Assembly: GCF_022846255.1 (NCBI RefSeq)
Contig: NZ_AP025682.1
Direction: 5' to 3' (one strand)
DNA from: Escherichia coli
GTDB lineage: Bacteria > Pseudomonadota > Gammaproteobacteria > Enterobacterales > Enterobacteriaceae
DNA: 64,000 nt
Under the pieces are notes generated by a model that did no database searches, was not told the origin of the DNA, and saw only the letters and a list, made by a program, of their open reading frames with translations. Below, in pieces: positions 14,251 to 39,562 of the stretch. How positions within the stretch are numbered: the stretch's first letter is position 1; every line of letters begins with the position of its first letter. The translations under genes and the position numbers were made by a program.

Positions 14251-16677
14251 TTATATTTTTTCGATCTCGACCAGATTAGTGTGCTGCGGGTTTCCCTTCG
14301 CCAGTGGTGAAGGGCGCAGAGTGGTTAGCGTATTCACACAGCCGCCGTGGTCGATTTTATCGCCAGACATATTGGCCTCGTGCCAGGCTCCCTGGCCCAT
14401 AGCACTAACTCCAGGGAGAATGCGTGGTGTCACTTTGGCTGGTAGCCGAACTTCGCCACGATGGTTAAACACCCGCACCATATCGCCGTTGGCAATCCCA
14501 CGTTTCTGTGCATCTATAGGGTTGATCCACACTTCCTGACGGCAGGCTGCCTTCAGGACATCAATGTTGCCGTAGGTCGAGTGCGTACGGGATTTGTAAT
14601 GGAAACCAAACAGTTGCAGTGGGAAGGCACTACGTTCAGGGGAGTCCCAGCCTTCAAAGGTTGAGGCATAAACCGGCAGTGGGCTTATCACTTCATCTTT
14701 TTCCAGTTCCCAGGTACGGGCAATTTCCGCCAGCTTGCTGGAATAAATTTCAATCTTACCGGAAGGCGTTTTAAGTGGATTTGCCTCGGGGTCGTCACGA
14801 AATGCTTTGTAGGCGACAAAATGACCATTGGGATCTTTACGCTTATAGATACCCATTTTTTTTAATTCGTCGTAAGACGGTAACGCCGGATCTTTGGCAA
14901 GCATTTTGGCGTACAGATGTTGTAACCATTGTTCCTGCGTGCGACCTTCAGTGAACTTTTGATAGACGTCAGGTCCAAGACGTTTCGCGACTTCACTCAG
15001 GATCCAGTAAATTGGTTTGCGTTCGAATTTTTCGCTGGTGACAGGCTGGAGGAAAATGAGATATCCCATGTTACCGGCGTAGTCGTTAGGAATAATATCT
15101 TCCTGCTCAACGGTCATCAGGTCTGGCAGCAGAATGTCGGCATATTTTGCCGATGAGGTCATAAAGTTTTCGATGACCACAATCATTTCGCATTTCGATT
15201 CGTCCTGCAGAATTTCATGCGTTTTGTTGATGTCAGAATGCTGATTAACCAGGGTATTTCCCGCGTAGTTCCAGATGAACTTAATGGGCACATCCAGTTT
15301 ATCTTTGCCCCGGACGCCGTCGCGGATTCCCGTCATTTGCGGGCCATGATCGATAGCATCTGTCCAACTGAAGCAGGAGATTGACGTTTTGACCGGATTA
15401 TCAAGCACCGGCAGGCGTTCTATGGTAATGGTATAGGTCGATTCACGCGCGCCACTATTTCCGCCGCTGATGCCGACATTGCCCGTCAGAATAGGCAACA
15501 TCGCAATAGCGCGTGCAGTCAGCTCGCCGTTTGCCTGGCGTTGCGGTCCCCAGCCCTGGCAGATATAAGCGGGTTTTGCTGTGCCAATTTCACGCGCCAG
15601 TTTGATGATACGGTCCACCGGGATACCGGTAATTTGCGAAGCCCACTGCGGCGTTTTCGCTGTTTTATCATCACCTTCACCAAGAATATAGGCTTTATAG
15701 TGACCATTTTTGGGTGCATCTGCGGGTAAGGTTTTTTCGTCATAGCCGACGCAGTATTTATCGAGAAAAGGTTGATCAACGAGATTTTCGTTAATCAATA
15801 CCCAGGCAATACCCGCAACCAGCGCGGCATCGGTGCCCGGGCGAATAGGAAGCCATTCATCTTCACGACCAGCAGCCGTATCGGTATATCGCGGATCGAT
15901 AACAATCATTTTGGCGTTCGATTTCTCGCGCGCTTTTTCAAGAAGATAAGTGATGCCACCGCCGCTCATGCGGGTTTCTGCCGGGTTGTTACCAAACATC
16001 ACGACCAGCTTGCTGTTTTCAATATCCGTGGTGCTGTTGCCATCATTACTGCCGTAGGTGTAGGGCATGGCACAGGAAATTTGCGCGGTGCTGTAGGAGC
16101 CATACTGGTTGAGTGAACCGCCGTAGCAGTTCATCAGGCGTTTGACCGCCGAGGCGGATGGCGAAGAGCGGGTCATATTGCCGCCAACGATCCCTGAAGA
16201 GTACTGAATATATACAGCCTCATTGCCATATTGTTCGACGGTTTTTTTCAGGCTACTGGCGATAGTATCCAGGGCTTCATCCCAGCTAATCCGTTCGAAT
16301 TTGCCTTCGCCGCGTTTGCCCACGCGTTTCATTGGGTAATTCAGGCGATCGGGATGATTAATACGCCGACGGATGGAGCGACCGCGCAAACAGGCACGTA
16401 CTTGATGATTGCCATACTCGTCGTTGCCGGTGTTGTCAGTTTCCACCCAGGTCACTTCATTATCTTTAACATGCAGACGAAGTGCACAGCGGCTACCACA
16501 GTTGACGGAACAGGCACCCCAGACCACTTTCTCGCTGGCCTGTTGTACCGCTGCCGCTGCACTGCGCAGGGTGAACGGTAAAGAAAAACCGCCTGCAGCC
16601 AGCGCCAGAGAACCTATCGCGGTAGATTTAACGAGTGTTCTGCGGCTGATGCCCACCATTTGTTCATTTTTGGACAT
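14251..16677 (-). CDS. ynfE: selenate/DMSO-reductase-family catalytic subunit YnfE (DmsA paralog)
   Basis: 808 aa, twin-arginine signal (SRRTLVK), paralogous to adjacent ynfF. Confidence 0.9.
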   Translation of the reverse strand: MSKNEQMVGISRRTLVKSTAIGSLALAAGGFSLPFTLRSAAAAVQQASEKVVWGACSVNCGSRCALRLHVKDNEVTWVETDNTGNDEYGNHQVRACLRGRSIRRRINHPDRLNYPMKRVGKRGEGKFERISWDEALDTIASSLKKTVEQYGNEAVYIQYSSGIVGGNMTRSSPSASAVKRLMNCYGGSLNQYGSYSTAQISCAMPYTYGSNDGNSTTDIENSKLVVMFGNNPAETRMSGGGITYLLEKAREKSNAKMIVIDPRYTDTAAGREDEWLPIRPGTDAALVAGIAWVLINENLVDQPFLDKYCVGYDEKTLPADAPKNGHYKAYILGEGDDKTAKTPQWASQITGIPVDRIIKLAREIGTAKPAYICQGWGPQRQANGELTARAIAMLPILTGNVGISGGNSGARESTYTITIERLPVLDNPVKTSISCFSWTDAIDHGPQMTGIRDGVRGKDKLDVPIKFIWNYAGNTLVNQHSDINKTHEILQDESKCEMIVVIENFMTSSAKYADILLPDLMTVEQEDIIPNDYAGNMGYLIFLQPVTSEKFERKPIYWILSEVAKRLGPDVYQKFTEGRTQEQWLQHLYAKMLAKDPALPSYDELKKMGIYKRKDPNGHFVAYKAFRDDPEANPLKTPSGKIEIYSSKLAEIARTWELEKDEVISPLPVYASTFEGWDSPERSAFPLQLFGFHYKSRTHSTYGNIDVLKAACRQEVWINPIDAQKRGIANGDMVRVFNHRGEVRLPAKVTPRILPGVSAMGQGAWHEANMSGDKIDHGGCVNTLTTLRPSPLAKGNPQHTNLVEIEKI

Positions 16678-16776
16678 AACTCACTCCCTGTTCTTTATCG
16701 TTATATAAAAGTTTATATATTGAATATTTAGCGCGCTAACAATAGAGGGAGTCTACCTATTTTGGGTTAATAATTA

Positions 16777-16790
16777 TTAATCCATATCAA
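16777..16790. promoter_or_regulatory. FNR-box-like site upstream of ynfE
   Basis: TTAAT-CCAT-ATCAA, one mismatch to TTGAT-N4-ATCAA, about 105 nt upstream of the ynfE ATG. Confidence 0.45.
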
Positions 16791-16875
16791 TAGAAGGGTA
16801 TGAGTAATAAGGTGGGATTATGTTGTATATTCAAATCGCCGGATGTGTCGTATCCGGCGTGCAGTCGATAATGTA

Positions 16876-17181
16876 TTACTGCGGTTCGGCAGGCGCGCCA
16901 TCCTGGGTAGACTGCGCGGGAGCAGAGACGTTACCGCTGGTGGTGCGGGTATAGAGAATTTTATGCGTATCATTAGCGCAATGCCCGACGACCTGGGAAT
17001 CAGGCTGATCAACCTGGTCATTGGGTACAATACTTAACGTGAAGCTGCTTTCGGGTACGCCATTATTGATAATGCGCTGTGATATATCGCTCTGTATGCG
17101 CTCACAGGATCCCGGCGCGGCGAGTACCGTGGGTGAGGCGAGGGCGAGCAGAAGCGCGGCACAGCAGGTTGAGAGTTTCAT
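16876..17181 (-). CDS. ynfD: small secreted protein YnfD (DUF1161)
   Basis: 101 aa from MKLSTCCAALLLALASPTVLA signal peptide; AAGGAG Shine-Dalgarno upstream. Confidence 0.8.
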   Translation of the reverse strand: MKLSTCCAALLLALASPTVLAAPGSCERIQSDISQRIINNGVPESSFTLSIVPNDQVDQPDSQVVGHCANDTHKILYTRTTSGNVSAPAQSTQDGAPAEPQ

Positions 17182-20830: not shown

Positions 20831-21850
20831 ATGAAAAGCATTTTAATTGAAAAACCGAATCAACTGTCGATTATCGAACGTGAAATACCCACCCCGTCAG
20901 CGGGTGAAGTACGAGTAAAAGTGAAACTTGCCGGAATTTGTGGTTCAGATAGCCATATTTACCGTGGGCATAATCCTTTTGCGAAATATCCGCGCGTCAT
21001 TGGTCATGAATTCTTTGGCGTCATTGATGCAGTGGGTGAAGGCGTGGAAAGCGCCAGAGTCGGTGAACGCGTTGCTGTCGATCCGGTGGTCAGCTGTGGG
21101 CATTGCTATCCGTGCTCTATAGGTAAGCCGAACGTTTGTACGACACTTGCTGTATTAGGTGTGCACGCTGACGGTGGTTTCAGTGAATATGCCGTGGTTC
21201 CGGCAAAAAATGCGTGGAAAATTCCTGAAGCAGTGGCCGATCAATATGCGGTGATGATCGAACCTTTTACCATTGCGGCTAACGTTACCGGTCATGGTCA
21301 ACCGACTGAAAATGATACCGTTCTGGTTTACGGTGCCGGCCCAATCGGCCTGACGATCGTTCAGGTATTAAAAGGCGTCTATAACGTTAAAAATGTGATT
21401 GTTGCCGATCGCATTGATGAACGACTGGAAAAAGCGAAAGAGAGCGGGGCAGACTGGGCGATTAATAACAGCCAGACACCGCTTGGCGAGAGTTTCGCTG
21501 AAAAAGGCATCAAGCCGACTTTAATTATCGATGCCGCTTGTCATCCTTCAATCTTGAAAGAGGCCGTAACGCTGGCTTCTCCAGCGGCACGTATTGTATT
21601 GATGGGCTTCTCCAGTGAACCGTCTGAAGTGATTCAGCAAGGAATTACCGGAAAAGAACTCTCTATTTTCTCTTCACGCTTAAATGCAAATAAATTCCCG
21701 GTCGTTATCGACTGGTTAAGTAAAGGGTTAATTAAACCAGAAAAACTAATTACCCATACGTTTGATTTCCAGCATGTTGCGGATGCCATTAGTTTATTTG
21801 AACAGGATCAAAAACATTGCTGCAAAGTCTTACTCACTTTTTCTGAATAA
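20831..21850 (+). CDS. rspB: zinc-dependent alcohol dehydrogenase family protein RspB
   Basis: 339 aa from MKSILIEKPN; GHE/Cys zinc motifs; 12 nt after rspA. Confidence 0.92.
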   Translation: MKSILIEKPNQLSIIEREIPTPSAGEVRVKVKLAGICGSDSHIYRGHNPFAKYPRVIGHEFFGVIDAVGEGVESARVGERVAVDPVVSCGHCYPCSIGKPNVCTTLAVLGVHADGGFSEYAVVPAKNAWKIPEAVADQYAVMIEPFTIAANVTGHGQPTENDTVLVYGAGPIGLTIVQVLKGVYNVKNVIVADRIDERLEKAKESGADWAINNSQTPLGESFAEKGIKPTLIIDAACHPSILKEAVTLASPAARIVLMGFSSEPSEVIQQGITGKELSIFSSRLNANKFPVVIDWLSKGLIKPEKLITHTFDFQHVADAISLFEQDQKHCCKVLLTFSE

Positions 21851-21907
21851 TACCAATAACGGCGAGTAAGTAGTACGCATCTTACCTCTTTTTTAGAGAT
21901 AACCATT

Positions 21908-23275
21908 ATGACAATAGAAAAACACGAAAGAAGCACTAAGGATTTGGTGAAAGCAGCAGTATCGGGATGGCTGGGCACTGCGCTTGAATTTATGGATTTC
22001 CAGTTATATTCGCTCGGCGCAGCGTTAGTGTTTCATGAAATATTTTTTCCTGAATCATCAACGGCAATGGCGTTAATTCTGGCAATGGGGACCTATGGTG
22101 CAGGTTATGTGGCACGTATTGTCGGAGCATTTATTTTCGGCAAAATGGGCGACAGAATAGGGCGTAAAAAAGTGCTCTTTATTACCATCACCATGATGGG
22201 GATCTGTACCACCTTAATTGGTGTGTTACCGACCTATGCACAGATTGGTGTTTTTGCACCCATCTTGCTGGTGACGCTTCGTATTATTCAGGGGTTGGGT
22301 GCAGGTGCGGAAATTTCCGGTGCCGGTACGATGCTGGCGGAATATGCGCCAAAAGGTAAGCGCGGAATTATCTCCTCATTTGTGGCTATGGGAACTAACT
22401 GCGGAACCTTGAGCGCAACGGCAATCTGGGCCTTTATGTTCTTCATTCTCAGTAAAGAGGAACTGCTGGCGTGGGGATGGCGTATACCTTTCCTGGCGAG
22501 CGTTGTCGTGATGGTCTTTGCTATCTGGTTGCGTATGAATCTGAAAGAAAGCCCGGTCTTTGAGAAGGTTAACGACAGTAACCAACCGACAGCAAAACCT
22601 GCACCTGCTGGTAGCATGTTCCAGAGCAAATCCTTCTGGCTGGCAACAGGGCTGCGTTTTGGTCAGGCTGGTAACTCAGGTTTAATTCAGACTTTCCTTG
22701 CAGGCTATTTAGTGCAGACGTTATTGTTTAACAAAGCAATTCCAACAGATGCATTGATGATCAGTTCGATTCTCGGCTTTATGACCATTCCGTTCCTTGG
22801 TTGGTTATCCGATAAAATTGGTCGCCGGATCCCGTATATTATTATGAATACCTCTGCAATTGTGCTGGCATGGCCAATGCTTTCTATCATCGTAGATAAA
22901 AGCTATGCCCCGAGCACCATTATGGTTGCACTGATTGTGATTCATAACTGTGCGGTGCTTGGATTATTTGCTCTGGAAAACATTACCATGGCAGAAATGT
23001 TCGGCTGTAAAAACCGCTTTACCCGAATGGCTATTTCTAAAGAAATTGGTGGTCTTATCGCTTCCGGTTTTGGTCCTATCCTGGCGGGGATTTTCTGCAC
23101 CATGACGGAATCCTGGTATCCGATCGCCATTATGATCATGGCATATTCTGTGATTGGTTTAATCTCTGCGCTGAAAATGCCAGAAGTGAAAGACCGTGAT
23201 TTAAGTGCGCTGGAAGACGCCGCAGAAGATCAACCACATGTTGTAAGAGCTGCGCAACCGTCCAGAAGTCTGTAA
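21908..23275 (+). CDS. ydfJ: MFS transporter YdfJ, intact
   Basis: 455 aa uninterrupted 12-TM-like ORF. Confidence 0.85.
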   Translation: MTIEKHERSTKDLVKAAVSGWLGTALEFMDFQLYSLGAALVFHEIFFPESSTAMALILAMGTYGAGYVARIVGAFIFGKMGDRIGRKKVLFITITMMGICTTLIGVLPTYAQIGVFAPILLVTLRIIQGLGAGAEISGAGTMLAEYAPKGKRGIISSFVAMGTNCGTLSATAIWAFMFFILSKEELLAWGWRIPFLASVVVMVFAIWLRMNLKESPVFEKVNDSNQPTAKPAPAGSMFQSKSFWLATGLRFGQAGNSGLIQTFLAGYLVQTLLFNKAIPTDALMISSILGFMTIPFLGWLSDKIGRRIPYIIMNTSAIVLAWPMLSIIVDKSYAPSTIMVALIVIHNCAVLGLFALENITMAEMFGCKNRFTRMAISKEIGGLIASGFGPILAGIFCTMTESWYPIAIMIMAYSVIGLISALKMPEVKDRDLSALEDAAEDQPHVVRAAQPSRSL

Positions 23276-23284
23276 ATCCTCAAT

Positions 23285-23315
23285 CCCTTCTCTTACCGGA
23301 GAGGGGATTTTTATT
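23285..23315 (+). terminator. intrinsic terminator after ydfJ
   Basis: stem CCCTTCTC/GAGAGGGG followed by ATTTTTATT. Confidence 0.6.
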
Positions 23316-23363
23316 CATATAACAAAACATGTAGCTTGCTATATTTAATTTTAAGGAATTGTT

Positions 23364-24824
23364 ATGGGAAATCATTTGTTATCAGCAAAAGCGACGCTCC
23401 CTGTTTATGATCGTAATAACCTGGCCCCAAGAATTGTTCATTTAGGCTTTGGTGCATTTCACCGTGCGCATCAGGGCGTGTATGCCGATATTCTTGCTAC
23501 GGAACATTTCAGTGACTGGGGATATTATGAGGTCAACTTAATCGGCGGCGAACAGCAAATTGCCGATTTACAACAGCAAGATAATCTTTATACCGTTGCG
23601 GAAATGTCGGCTGATGCGTGGACGGCTCGCGTCGTTGGCGTCGTTAAAAAAGCCTTGCACGTACAAATAGATGGCTTAGAAACCGTGTTGGCTGTGATGT
23701 GTGAACCGCAAATCGCGATTGTCTCTCTGACAATCACCGAAAAAGGGTATTTCCACTCTCCGGCGACCGGACAGTTAATGCTCGATCACCCGATGGTCGT
23801 TGCCGACGTACAAAATCCCCACCAGCCGAAAACTGCAACAGGGGTGATTGTCGAGGCGCTGGCTCGCCGTAAAGCGGCAGGACTTCCCGCATTTACCGTC
23901 ATGTCATGTGACAACATGCCAGAAAACGGTCATGTTATGCGTGACGTTGTCACTTCCTACGCGCAAGCTGTTGATGTAAAACTGGCACAATGGATCGAAG
24001 AAAACGTGACTTTCCCATCAACAATGGTGGACCGTATTGTGCCCGCAGTGACGGAGGATACGCTGGCGAAAATCGAACAACTTACCGGTGTGCGCGATCC
24101 TGCGGGCGTTGCCTGTGAACCTTTCCGCCAGTGGGTAATAGAAGATAACTTTGTTGCCGGACGTCCGGAATGGGAAAAAGCGGGAGCCGAACTGGTTAGT
24201 GATGTGCTGCCTTATGAAGAGATGAAGTTGCGCATGCTCAACGGCAGTCATTCATTCCTGGCGTATCTGGGGTATCTTGCCGGATATCAGCACATTAATG
24301 ACTGCATGGAAGATGAACATTATCGTCATGCAGCGTATGCCTTGATGTTGCAGGAACAAGCGCCGACGTTGAAAGTGCAGGGCGTTGATTTGCAAGATTA
24401 CGCTAACCGATTAATTGAACGCTATAGCAACCCGGCGCTACGTCATCGAACCTGGCAGATTGCGATGGATGGTAGCCAGAAATTGCCACAGCGGATGTTG
24501 GATTCTGTTCGCTGGCATCTGGCGCATGACAGCAAGTTCGATCTGCTGGCGCTGGGCGTCGCAGGTTGGATGCGTTATGTCGGTGGTGTTGATGAACAGG
24601 GAAATCCGATAGAAATCAGTGACCCACTGTTACCTGTTATTCAGAAGGCTGTACAAAGTAGTGCCGAAGGGAAAGCGCGCGTCCAGTCATTGCTGGCGAT
24701 TAAGGCGATCTTTGGTGATGATTTGCCAGACAATAGCTTGTTTACTGCAAAAGTGACGGAAGCGTACTTGTCTTTATTAGCGCATGGTGCGAAAGCGACC
24801 GTGGCGAAATATTCCGTGAAGTAA
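23364..24824 (+). CDS. ydfI: mannitol-dehydrogenase-family oxidoreductase YdfI
   Basis: 486 aa, long-chain mannitol/mannonate dehydrogenase family. Confidence 0.88.
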
Positions 24825-24852
24825 AAAAAGCAATGCCGCCATCGGCGGCATT
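24823..24852. terminator. bidirectional stem-loop between convergent ydfI and ydfZ
   Basis: AATGCCGCC/GGCGGCATT perfect stem preceded by A7 on + strand (U-run on - strand). Confidence 0.55.
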
Positions 24853-24859
24853 CACACGC

Positions 24860-25063
24860 TTAGTTCATGCCGAGACGAATCAGGTCCAGAGGTGCCAGTT
24901 TCTCTTCACAACCTTCAACAACTACGGTTTTTCCGCGGCGGATTTGCTCAGCGGTCAGACCTTCAGTATCAATCGACAGGATCTTGCCAGTGTGACCGGT
25001 GCCGCTAACCATAACACGGCTGCCAGTGGTGATTGCGTTACGGTTACGATCGTAGGTCGTCAT
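24860..25063 (-). CDS. ydfZ: putative selenium-binding protein YdfZ
   Basis: 67 aa ORF, sequence recognised as YdfZ. Confidence 0.85.
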
Positions 25064-25239
25064 AGGTGTTTTCTCCTTTCTGATTTACAGTCGAAGCCCA
25101 CGTAACGGGCGCACTATAAATACTCCTGTCGAGTGAAATATTTTTTGTTTTTGATCAAGCTCACATCTTTTTTGATGCATGCATGAGCCATATGACGGAG
25201 GGAAAAACTCTCACCCCGGATGGGATGAGAGGAAATGAA

Positions 25240-28943: not shown

Positions 28944-29449
28944 ACACCACCAATGGCTGGCCTGGATTTATCGCCAGACCAGCTTCGTTATAGCAGTAAT
29001 TGCAGCAACTGGGCGAGGGCAAACTTCACCGCTAATGCGAATGCCGTTTCGCAGTCGCCAGCAAAATTACTTTTTTTGTATACTCTTCCGTTATAATAAT
29101 TTTCAAATTCAGCCGGACCAGATGATCAACATTAGCGGCAGTCTGGATAAGAAAAGCGCGCCGGCCGTCGTTCGGGTCACTCAGTTGCAGAAATAAAAAT
29201 AAATTAGCCTGATGGCCTGAACTACTGGGCCATTAGGGTATTGGGTTATGCTATTTGTCATCCTTTTAATTGCGATAATGCAGAGTTAATTTATAGAATT
29301 AAACACTTTTTTATCTGCTGATTTTGTTTTAAATCACAATGTTATCTCAGAGATGCTCATAACTCCGGATTTCTATGAAAATATTGACGTAATTTTGCTT
29401 TTCTCTCGTTAGAATAGCGCGCACAAGGAACTGTGAAAAAGGAGTGGCA

Positions 29450-36142: not shown

Positions 36143-39287
<3,145 letters not shown>

Positions 39288-39343: not shown

Positions 39344-39562
39344 CTACATAGCGTGTTGATTGTAATAGGGCACGCCGAGCGCATCCGACTTATCACTGCC
39401 AGTACCCATGTGATTTAAATCAAACGGTGGTTGTTCCTGCGATGTGGGAACAACCACGACATTGCCACAGGAAGTAACAACCGGCTGCGTGGTTTGTTCC
39501 GCAACGCCCTGCGCAGAAAAGAGAATAAGCGCAGTTGCTATTGCGGATAAAAGTGGTTTCAT
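39344..39562 (-). CDS. marB: periplasmic protein MarB
   Basis: 72 aa with signal peptide, recognised as MarB; downstream of marA. Confidence 0.9.
   Translation of the reverse strand: MKPLLSAIATALILFSAQGVAEQTTQPVVTSCGNVVVVPTSQEQPPFDLNHMGTGSDKSDALGVPYYNQHAM

Follow-up and report, generated by a model that had tools for sequence, protein, structure and literature searches.

The regulatory spacer upstream of ynfE raises the question of whether a sequence that departs from the FNR consensus at one base is a working operator of the ynfEFGH-dmsD operon, a chance resemblance without function, or part of a promoter of another kind. The stretch of Escherichia coli DNA analysed here, 64,000 nucleotides long and called the window in the following, is 99.4% identical to several complete E. 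coli genomes and carries ynfD, then ynfE, ynfF, ynfG, ynfH, and dmsD in this order. In this work, the motif is read with high confidence as the FNR operator in a class II promoter of ynfEFGH-dmsD. The box and the two genes on either side of it are located as follows:

14251-16677, minus strand: ynfE coding sequence, first gene of ynfEFGH-dmsD (open reading frame list and RefSeq annotation of near-identical genomes)
16777-16790, minus strand: FNR box, TTGATatggATTAA in the ynfE orientation and TTAATCCATATCAA on the plus strand
16876-17181, minus strand: ynfD, the same-strand upstream gene that bounds the 198-bp regulatory spacer (annotation)

The FNR box and its published counterpart

On the plus strand, TTAATCCATATCAA has the form TTAAT-N4-ATCAA, as a sequence-only reading of the window had reported, and the change from G to A at position 3 is its sole mismatch to TTGAT-N4-ATCAA. 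Nine of the ten specified consensus bases are therefore matched. Read in the direction of ynfE, the box has the consensus TTGAT as its promoter-distal half and ATTAA in place of ATCAA as its promoter-proximal half. The centre of the box at 16783.5 was measured at 106.5 nt 5' of the A of the ynfE ATG (16677), in agreement with the earlier estimate of about 105 nt. Six one-mismatch matches to the FNR consensus were found in the 64 kb, where 3.57 were expected, and at least six were reached in 17 of 100 shuffles. The consensus match by itself is no better than chance, and its significance comes from position and conservation.

A position weight matrix (PWM) for FNR was built from 62 ChIP-bound sites in Table S6 of Myers et al. 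(2013; PMC3688515), with the ynfE site excluded. The scan with an FNR matrix that the sequence-only reading had proposed as a check gave the ynfE box 13.07 bits, which is inside the range of the training sites (11.6–20.7 bits, median 15.0) and in the lower third of the ChIP-bound sites, and the box takes rank 6 in the window. Sites scoring as high are expected about 1.35 times per 64 kb and about 0.004 times per 198-bp ynfD–ynfE spacer. Both by its inverted repeat and by its PWM score, the box belongs among FNR binding sites. A TTAAT half-site, with the same G-to-A deviation, is also present in the ChIP-bound FNR sites of ompW (TTAATCCAGATCAA), uspF (TTAATTTAGATCAA), katG, and cspA, although these sites serve other genes in other promoter contexts.

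The published data on E. coli place FNR on exactly this sequence. An FNR ChIP-seq peak was reported at ynfE, at 1,656,036, with one FNR site at −40.5, which falls inside the class II range of −41.5 ± 4 given in the same work, and ynfEFGH-dmsD was filed there under "directly activated by FNR" (Myers et al., 2013; PMC3688515). The predicted ynfE site at this peak is TTGATATGGATTAA at U00096.2 coordinate 1655980 (Table S6, PMC3688515), and TTGATATGGATTAA is the reverse complement of the window motif TTAATCCATATCAA. For the mapping of coordinates, the end of ynfD in U00096.2 (1655894) and the offset of 199 nt from the ynfD end to the ynfE start were used, which puts the ATG at 1656093. By this mapping, coordinate 1655980 corresponds exactly to window position 16790, the first T of the box. 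The ynfE operon is listed as "Activated" in the comparison of the wild type with Δfnr (Table S8, PMC3688515), and its aerobic/anaerobic expression ratio is 0.027 (Table S12, PMC3688515). The sigma-70 ChIP signal at ynfE was 27 versus 709, so occupancy is gained anaerobically (Table S2, PMC3688515). Furthermore, three papers credit a study devoted to the ynfE promoter, Xu, Busby and Browning (2009; J Bacteriol 191:3172), with its activation by FNR and its repression by NarL (PMC6561318, PMC10845959, PMC3547828).

The flagged motif is thus the known, already published FNR site of the ynfEFGH-dmsD selenate-reductase operon. The earlier assignment of the box to this operon and the description of the operon as anaerobically expressed both hold against these data. 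The inspection of sequence alone was correct in picking out a weak-looking box with one mismatch, which proves to be the operator, established by experiment, of an operon for anaerobic respiration; the worth of this result is mainly one of quality control.

Promoter architecture and conservation in Enterobacteriaceae

The elements between the box and the ynfE start codon are, in the direction of transcription:

16754-16769, minus strand: NarL-type 7-2-7 motif TAACCCA-aa-ATAGGTA, at about −26 to −11, with a 12/14 match to TACYYMT-NN-AKRRGTA
16750-16755, minus strand: candidate −10 hexamer TAGACT, with a 4/6 match including A2 and T6, starting 21 nt past the box
16743, minus strand: probable transcription start, A, placed from the −40.5 of Myers et al. 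(Table 1) and 7 nt past TAGACT, accurate to about ± 2 nt
16728-16743, minus strand: start-proximal motif A-T-Y-R-TTAGC, ATTGTTAGCGCGCTAA in E. coli (cross-genus anchored alignment)
16680-16688, minus strand: Shine-Dalgarno region GGGAGTGAG (from the sequence; GAGTGAG is kept in nearly all loci and in dmsA)

We infer that +1 is the A at 16743, which gives a leader of 66 nt and puts TAGACT at −12 to −7. This placement depends on one derived number, the published −40.5. The transcription starts used by Myers et al. (2013; PMC3688515) come from EcoCyc and from Kim et al. (2012). The tables of Kim et al. (2012) give starts for ynfC, ynfD, and ynfH and none for ynfE, presumably because the cultures were aerobic, and therefore the −40.5 rests on the EcoCyc start. 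The sequence-only reading had considered the site compatible with class II and had staked this on a start that would not place it far from −41.5 or −61.5; the published position and the −10-like hexamer 21 nt past the box bear it out. The ynfE promoter has no −35 element, and with TAGACT matching the −10 consensus in four of six bases, it has the poor core promoter of the class II type. In a scan of 16600–16950 for consensus promoters and terminators, no sigma-70 promoter and no terminator were found, a result that is to be expected of an activator-dependent promoter and uninformative for it. In E. coli 14EC033, TAGACT is replaced by TAGACC, which is awkward for the −10 assignment unless it is a promoter-down allele. 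A perfect 12-nt palindrome, TTAGCGCGCTAA, is located at 16728–16739 within ATTGTTAGCGCGCTAA in E. coli; it could form a 5' hairpin or be another operator.

The 7-2-7 motif begins 7 nt past the box in the window, and its end is overlapped by TAGACT. It has the form of a NarL site, with two inverted TACYYMT heptamers 2 bp apart. For scoring, we used TACYYMT-NN-AKRRGTA, which we take to be the NarL 7-2-7 consensus. Compared with K-12, the box is identical, and the core promoter of the window differs at 16771 (A vs C) and 16758 (A vs G), both outside the box. Position 16758 is inside the NarL-type heptamer, and either base there is still compatible with AKRRGTA. The exact 56-bp core-promoter allele of the window (16745–16800) was found in 2 of 5426 complete E. 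coli genomes. Among 5291 E. coli genomes, a 30-mer comprising the box and its flank occurs unchanged in 5034 and with a single difference in the other 257. The 14-bp box is also unchanged in E. albertii, E. whittamii, and two cryptic Escherichia lineages, in which the upstream DNA is unalignable.

One E. coli genome carries an interrupted box. In strain 2022S01-140-18 (NZ_CM125663.1, about 4519090–4522056), about 3 kb of foreign DNA is located inside the FNR box and parts the TTGAT half from the promoter. The insertion is flanked on either side by the same nine base pairs (window 16778–16786), suggestive of a target-site duplication.

By scanning species-representative genomes with the YnfE N-terminus, 80 Enterobacteriaceae loci (L002–L081) were obtained, and a ynfD homologue is located upstream in 78 of them. 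A box of the form TTGA(T/C)-N4-nnTAA is centred 93–110 nt before the ATG in 75 of the 80 loci, and conservation in orthologous promoters thus adds to the case for an FNR site. In the box-anchored alignment, TTGA and TAA hardly change, and variation is free in the N4 and the flanks. The 7-2-7 motif starts 7–8 nt past the box in 75 of 76 loci. It matches the scoring consensus in at least 12 of 14 positions in 56 of the 76, for which the shuffle null gives P = 0.004, and in all 14 positions in 10 loci, e.g., TACCTCT-AA-ATAAGTA in Enterobacter. The −10-like hexamer lies 21–22 nt past the box in 75 of 76 loci, which is the canonical class II spacing, and in 74 of 76 it is opened at this distance by the terminal TA of the 7-2-7 motif, with TAAACT, TATGAT, TATCAT, and TACCAT as examples from across the genera. 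The FNR box, the NarL 7-2-7 motif over the −10, and the leader are therefore conserved as a unit across Enterobacteriaceae, and this unit is paralogous to the dmsA control region.

Five loci have no box at 93–110 nt. In L035 (Enterobacter genomosp. O), the same box is centred at 227.5 nt, and there appears to be an insertion in the leader. The three Mangrovibacter loci (L047, L051, and L069) have only weak TTGATnCGAAATAA sites at about 190–198 nt. The Serratia locus (L080) is without ynfD and may not be orthologous.

A hairpin GCCGGAT...ATCCGGC is located 3' of ynfD in E. coli (window 16838–16858). In many other genera (L011, L031, L049, etc.), a hairpin GGGGnATnCCCC with a T-run adjoins the FNR box and is likely the ynfD terminator; its T-run provides the first bases of TTGAT.

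The two half-sites are not conserved in the same way. All 75 boxes have TTGAT or TTGAC as the distal half, and the proximal half is ATTAA in 44, GATAA in 16, GTTAA in 8, AATAA in 4, CTTAA in 2, and CATAA in 1. The consensus half ATCAA was found in none of these 75 boxes. A change from T to C would give a better FNR match, and together with the absence of ATCAA this suggests a constraint, either on a suboptimal FNR site or on some other function of that T. With a weak half-site, FNR occupancy may be tuned to a level at which the promoter can be turned off by NarL or by low FNR activity.

The box of Klebsiella, Raoultella, and Kluyvera is a degenerate TTGACCnGGGATAA with a score of 3–5 bits, and the hexamers there (TATGAT, TATTAT, and TATCAT) are near the −10 consensus. 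Across the loci, weaker boxes accompany better −10 hexamers, with a Spearman coefficient of −0.49 that is uncorrected for phylogeny and is not to be taken as a test. Given the degenerate box in these three genera, FNR control may not be family-wide, and the Klebsiella-type loci may have a different or relaxed regulation. The TTGACCnGGGATAA box is placed inside a longer palindrome, TTATCCC...GGGATAA, about 100–130 nt before the ATG (L014, L017, L027–L030, L041, L042, and L061).

Alternative readings of the ynfE promoter

The least improbable alternative, though still a very improbable one, concerns the core promoter and not the box. The TATTGT/CATCAT block at 16739–16744 could be the real −10, with a start near 16732 and FNR near −51.5, a position of neither class II nor class I. 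TATTGT has A2 and T6 and is within a conserved block, and the proposed TAGACT is a weak hexamer that differs in one strain of E. coli. However, A2 of the block is not conserved (CTCCAT in Leclercia and CTTCAT in Kosakonia), and the TA of the proposed −10 is kept in 74 of 76 loci at the class II spacing. An activator at −51.5 would be on the wrong face of the helix. The published FNR position of −40.5 (PMC3688515) also speaks against this start, and TAGACT is kept here as the −10.

It is less probable again that the conserved TTGAYA serves as the −35 hexamer in an ordinary sigma-70 promoter independent of FNR. The sequences TTGATA, TTGACC, TTGACG, and, in Salmonella, TTGACA do resemble the consensus TTGACA, and the Klebsiella-type loci combine a poor second half-site with a good −10-like hexamer. 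Nevertheless, the sequence 16–18 bp past TTGATA is ACCCAA or TACCTC, with no −10-like hexamer, and 30 bp separate TTGATA from the −10-like hexamer that is conserved. Moreover, the TAA of the second half is invariant at the FNR spacing, and expression is anaerobic and FNR-dependent (PMC3688515).

About as improbable as the −35 reading is the view that the box, or the overlapping AT-rich ATTAAtaattATTAA, is mainly bound by ArcA or a nucleoid protein and that FNR binding is incidental. A direct ATTAA repeat with 10-bp spacing does overlap the box in E. coli, and many FNR promoters are co-regulated. On the other hand, the second ATTAA is not conserved outside Escherichia, expression is fnr-dependent, and no overlap with Fis, H-NS, or IHF is recorded for the ynfE site (Table S6, PMC3688515). 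A chance match in AT-rich intergenic DNA, in line with the number of one-mismatch matches in the window and its shuffles, can be counted as already refuted by the ChIP-seq peak on exactly this sequence and by the conservation of the box in 75 of 80 loci at a fixed distance while the flanks diverge, with only 0.004 such sites expected in the spacer.

None of the four alternatives withstands the ChIP data combined with the conserved spacing, and the reading of the motif as a class II FNR operator is therefore retained. We propose that, without oxygen, dimeric [4Fe-4S]-FNR would bind TTGATatggATTAA, centred about 40–42 bp 5' of the start, and recruit RNA polymerase to a promoter without a −35 and with a weak −10 (TAGACT), with the activating contacts known for FNR at class II promoters. 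When nitrate is present, phospho-NarL would repress the promoter, most likely via the conserved 7-2-7 motif over the −10. In vivo FNR occupancy, anaerobic gain of sigma-70, FNR-dependent anaerobic expression, and NarL repression are demonstrated in the literature. The identity with the published site, the PWM score, the fixed geometry, and the family-wide conservation come from the present analysis. We infer at which nucleotide transcription starts, which hexamer is the −10, which bases NarL touches, and, from standard knowledge of class II FNR promoters, the activation contacts.

The ModE-type site, dmsABC, and other FNR sites in the window

The leader of ynfE contains a further candidate regulatory element:

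16697-16724, no strand assigned: ModE-type operator TTCAATATATA-aacttt-TATATAACGAT in the leader, at about +20 to +47, with an 18/20 match to the ModE consensus

The E. coli ModE consensus is ATCGNTATATA-N6-TATATANCGAT (PMC545781). By comparison with it, the ynfE leader site qualifies as a ModE match and is the only one with three or fewer mismatches in the 64 kb, where 0.00 are expected. A ModE-type score of 16–18/20 was obtained in 16 loci of Escherichia, Citrobacter, Salmonella, and Intestinirhabdus, with the site always centred 32–33 nt before the ATG. No such site was found in the other genera, including Enterobacter, Klebsiella, Kluyvera, and Kosakonia, in which the scores are 13 or less (the shuffle maximum was 15). 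A paralogous ModE-type site in the dmsA leader scores 17/20, and thus the element is conserved in orthologues and in a paralogue.

The dmsABC operon of E. coli is paralogous to ynfEFGH-dmsD and, like it, is activated by FNR from a class II position and repressed by NarL. The order of elements at dmsA in K-12 is the same as at ynfE: the serS terminator, the FNR box, a NarL heptamer (TACTCCT), a −10-like hexamer, a ModE-type site in the leader, and a GAGTGAG Shine-Dalgarno sequence. The dmsA box, TTGATaccgAACAA, scores 10.4 bits, and its promoter-proximal half is imperfect, as in ynfE. The −10-like TAATAC of dmsA and the TAGACT of ynfE both lie 21 nt past the box. Both the FNR-box block and the ModE block are alignable between the two operons. 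However, the arrangement of the NarL heptamers differs, and the leader is about 136 nt in dmsA and 66 nt in ynfE. The dmsA ModE site has its centre near +51 and the ynfE one near +33, in both cases downstream of the start. Furthermore, ModE control is documented for dmsA, whereas for ynfE no statement on it was found in the accessible literature, which does not include the likeliest sources. The same literature holds no statement on selection for the weak half-site, and both could already stand in RegulonDB or RegPrecise.

We hypothesize, tentatively, that the ynfE leader holds a functional ModE operator (16697–16724) and that the weak FNR half-site is under family-wide selection; taken together, these two proposals are rather doubtful. 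This operator, in the ynfE leader of Escherichia, Salmonella, and Citrobacter, would have been inherited with the dmsA/ynfE duplication. If this is true, selenate-reductase expression would respond to molybdate from a position downstream of the start, and if the ModE control is both real and undocumented, it would link the expression of a molybdoenzyme to the supply of molybdate. Such control would be relevant because the ynfE promoter is in use as a part of gut biosensors (PMC6561318, PMC12405535).

Five sites in the window outscore the ynfE box by the FNR PWM. Two of them, TTGTTTTTGATCAA and TTGATCAAGCTCAC, are the two published FNR sites of ydfZ. The highest score in the window is that of GTGATTTAAATCAA at 39410, with 17.8 bits. 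Apart from the ynfE box, the high-scoring FNR-PWM positions in the window are 25145–25164, 39410–39423, 38035–38048, and 29324–29337. In the region of about 21850–25200, rspB is followed by open reading frames of 455 and 486 aa and then by the ydfZ FNR sites. In the near-identical strain 7/2, an integrase and prophage genes come directly after rspB, and in K-12 this junction is the place of the Qin prophage. The strain of the window seems to be without a prophage at the rspB junction.
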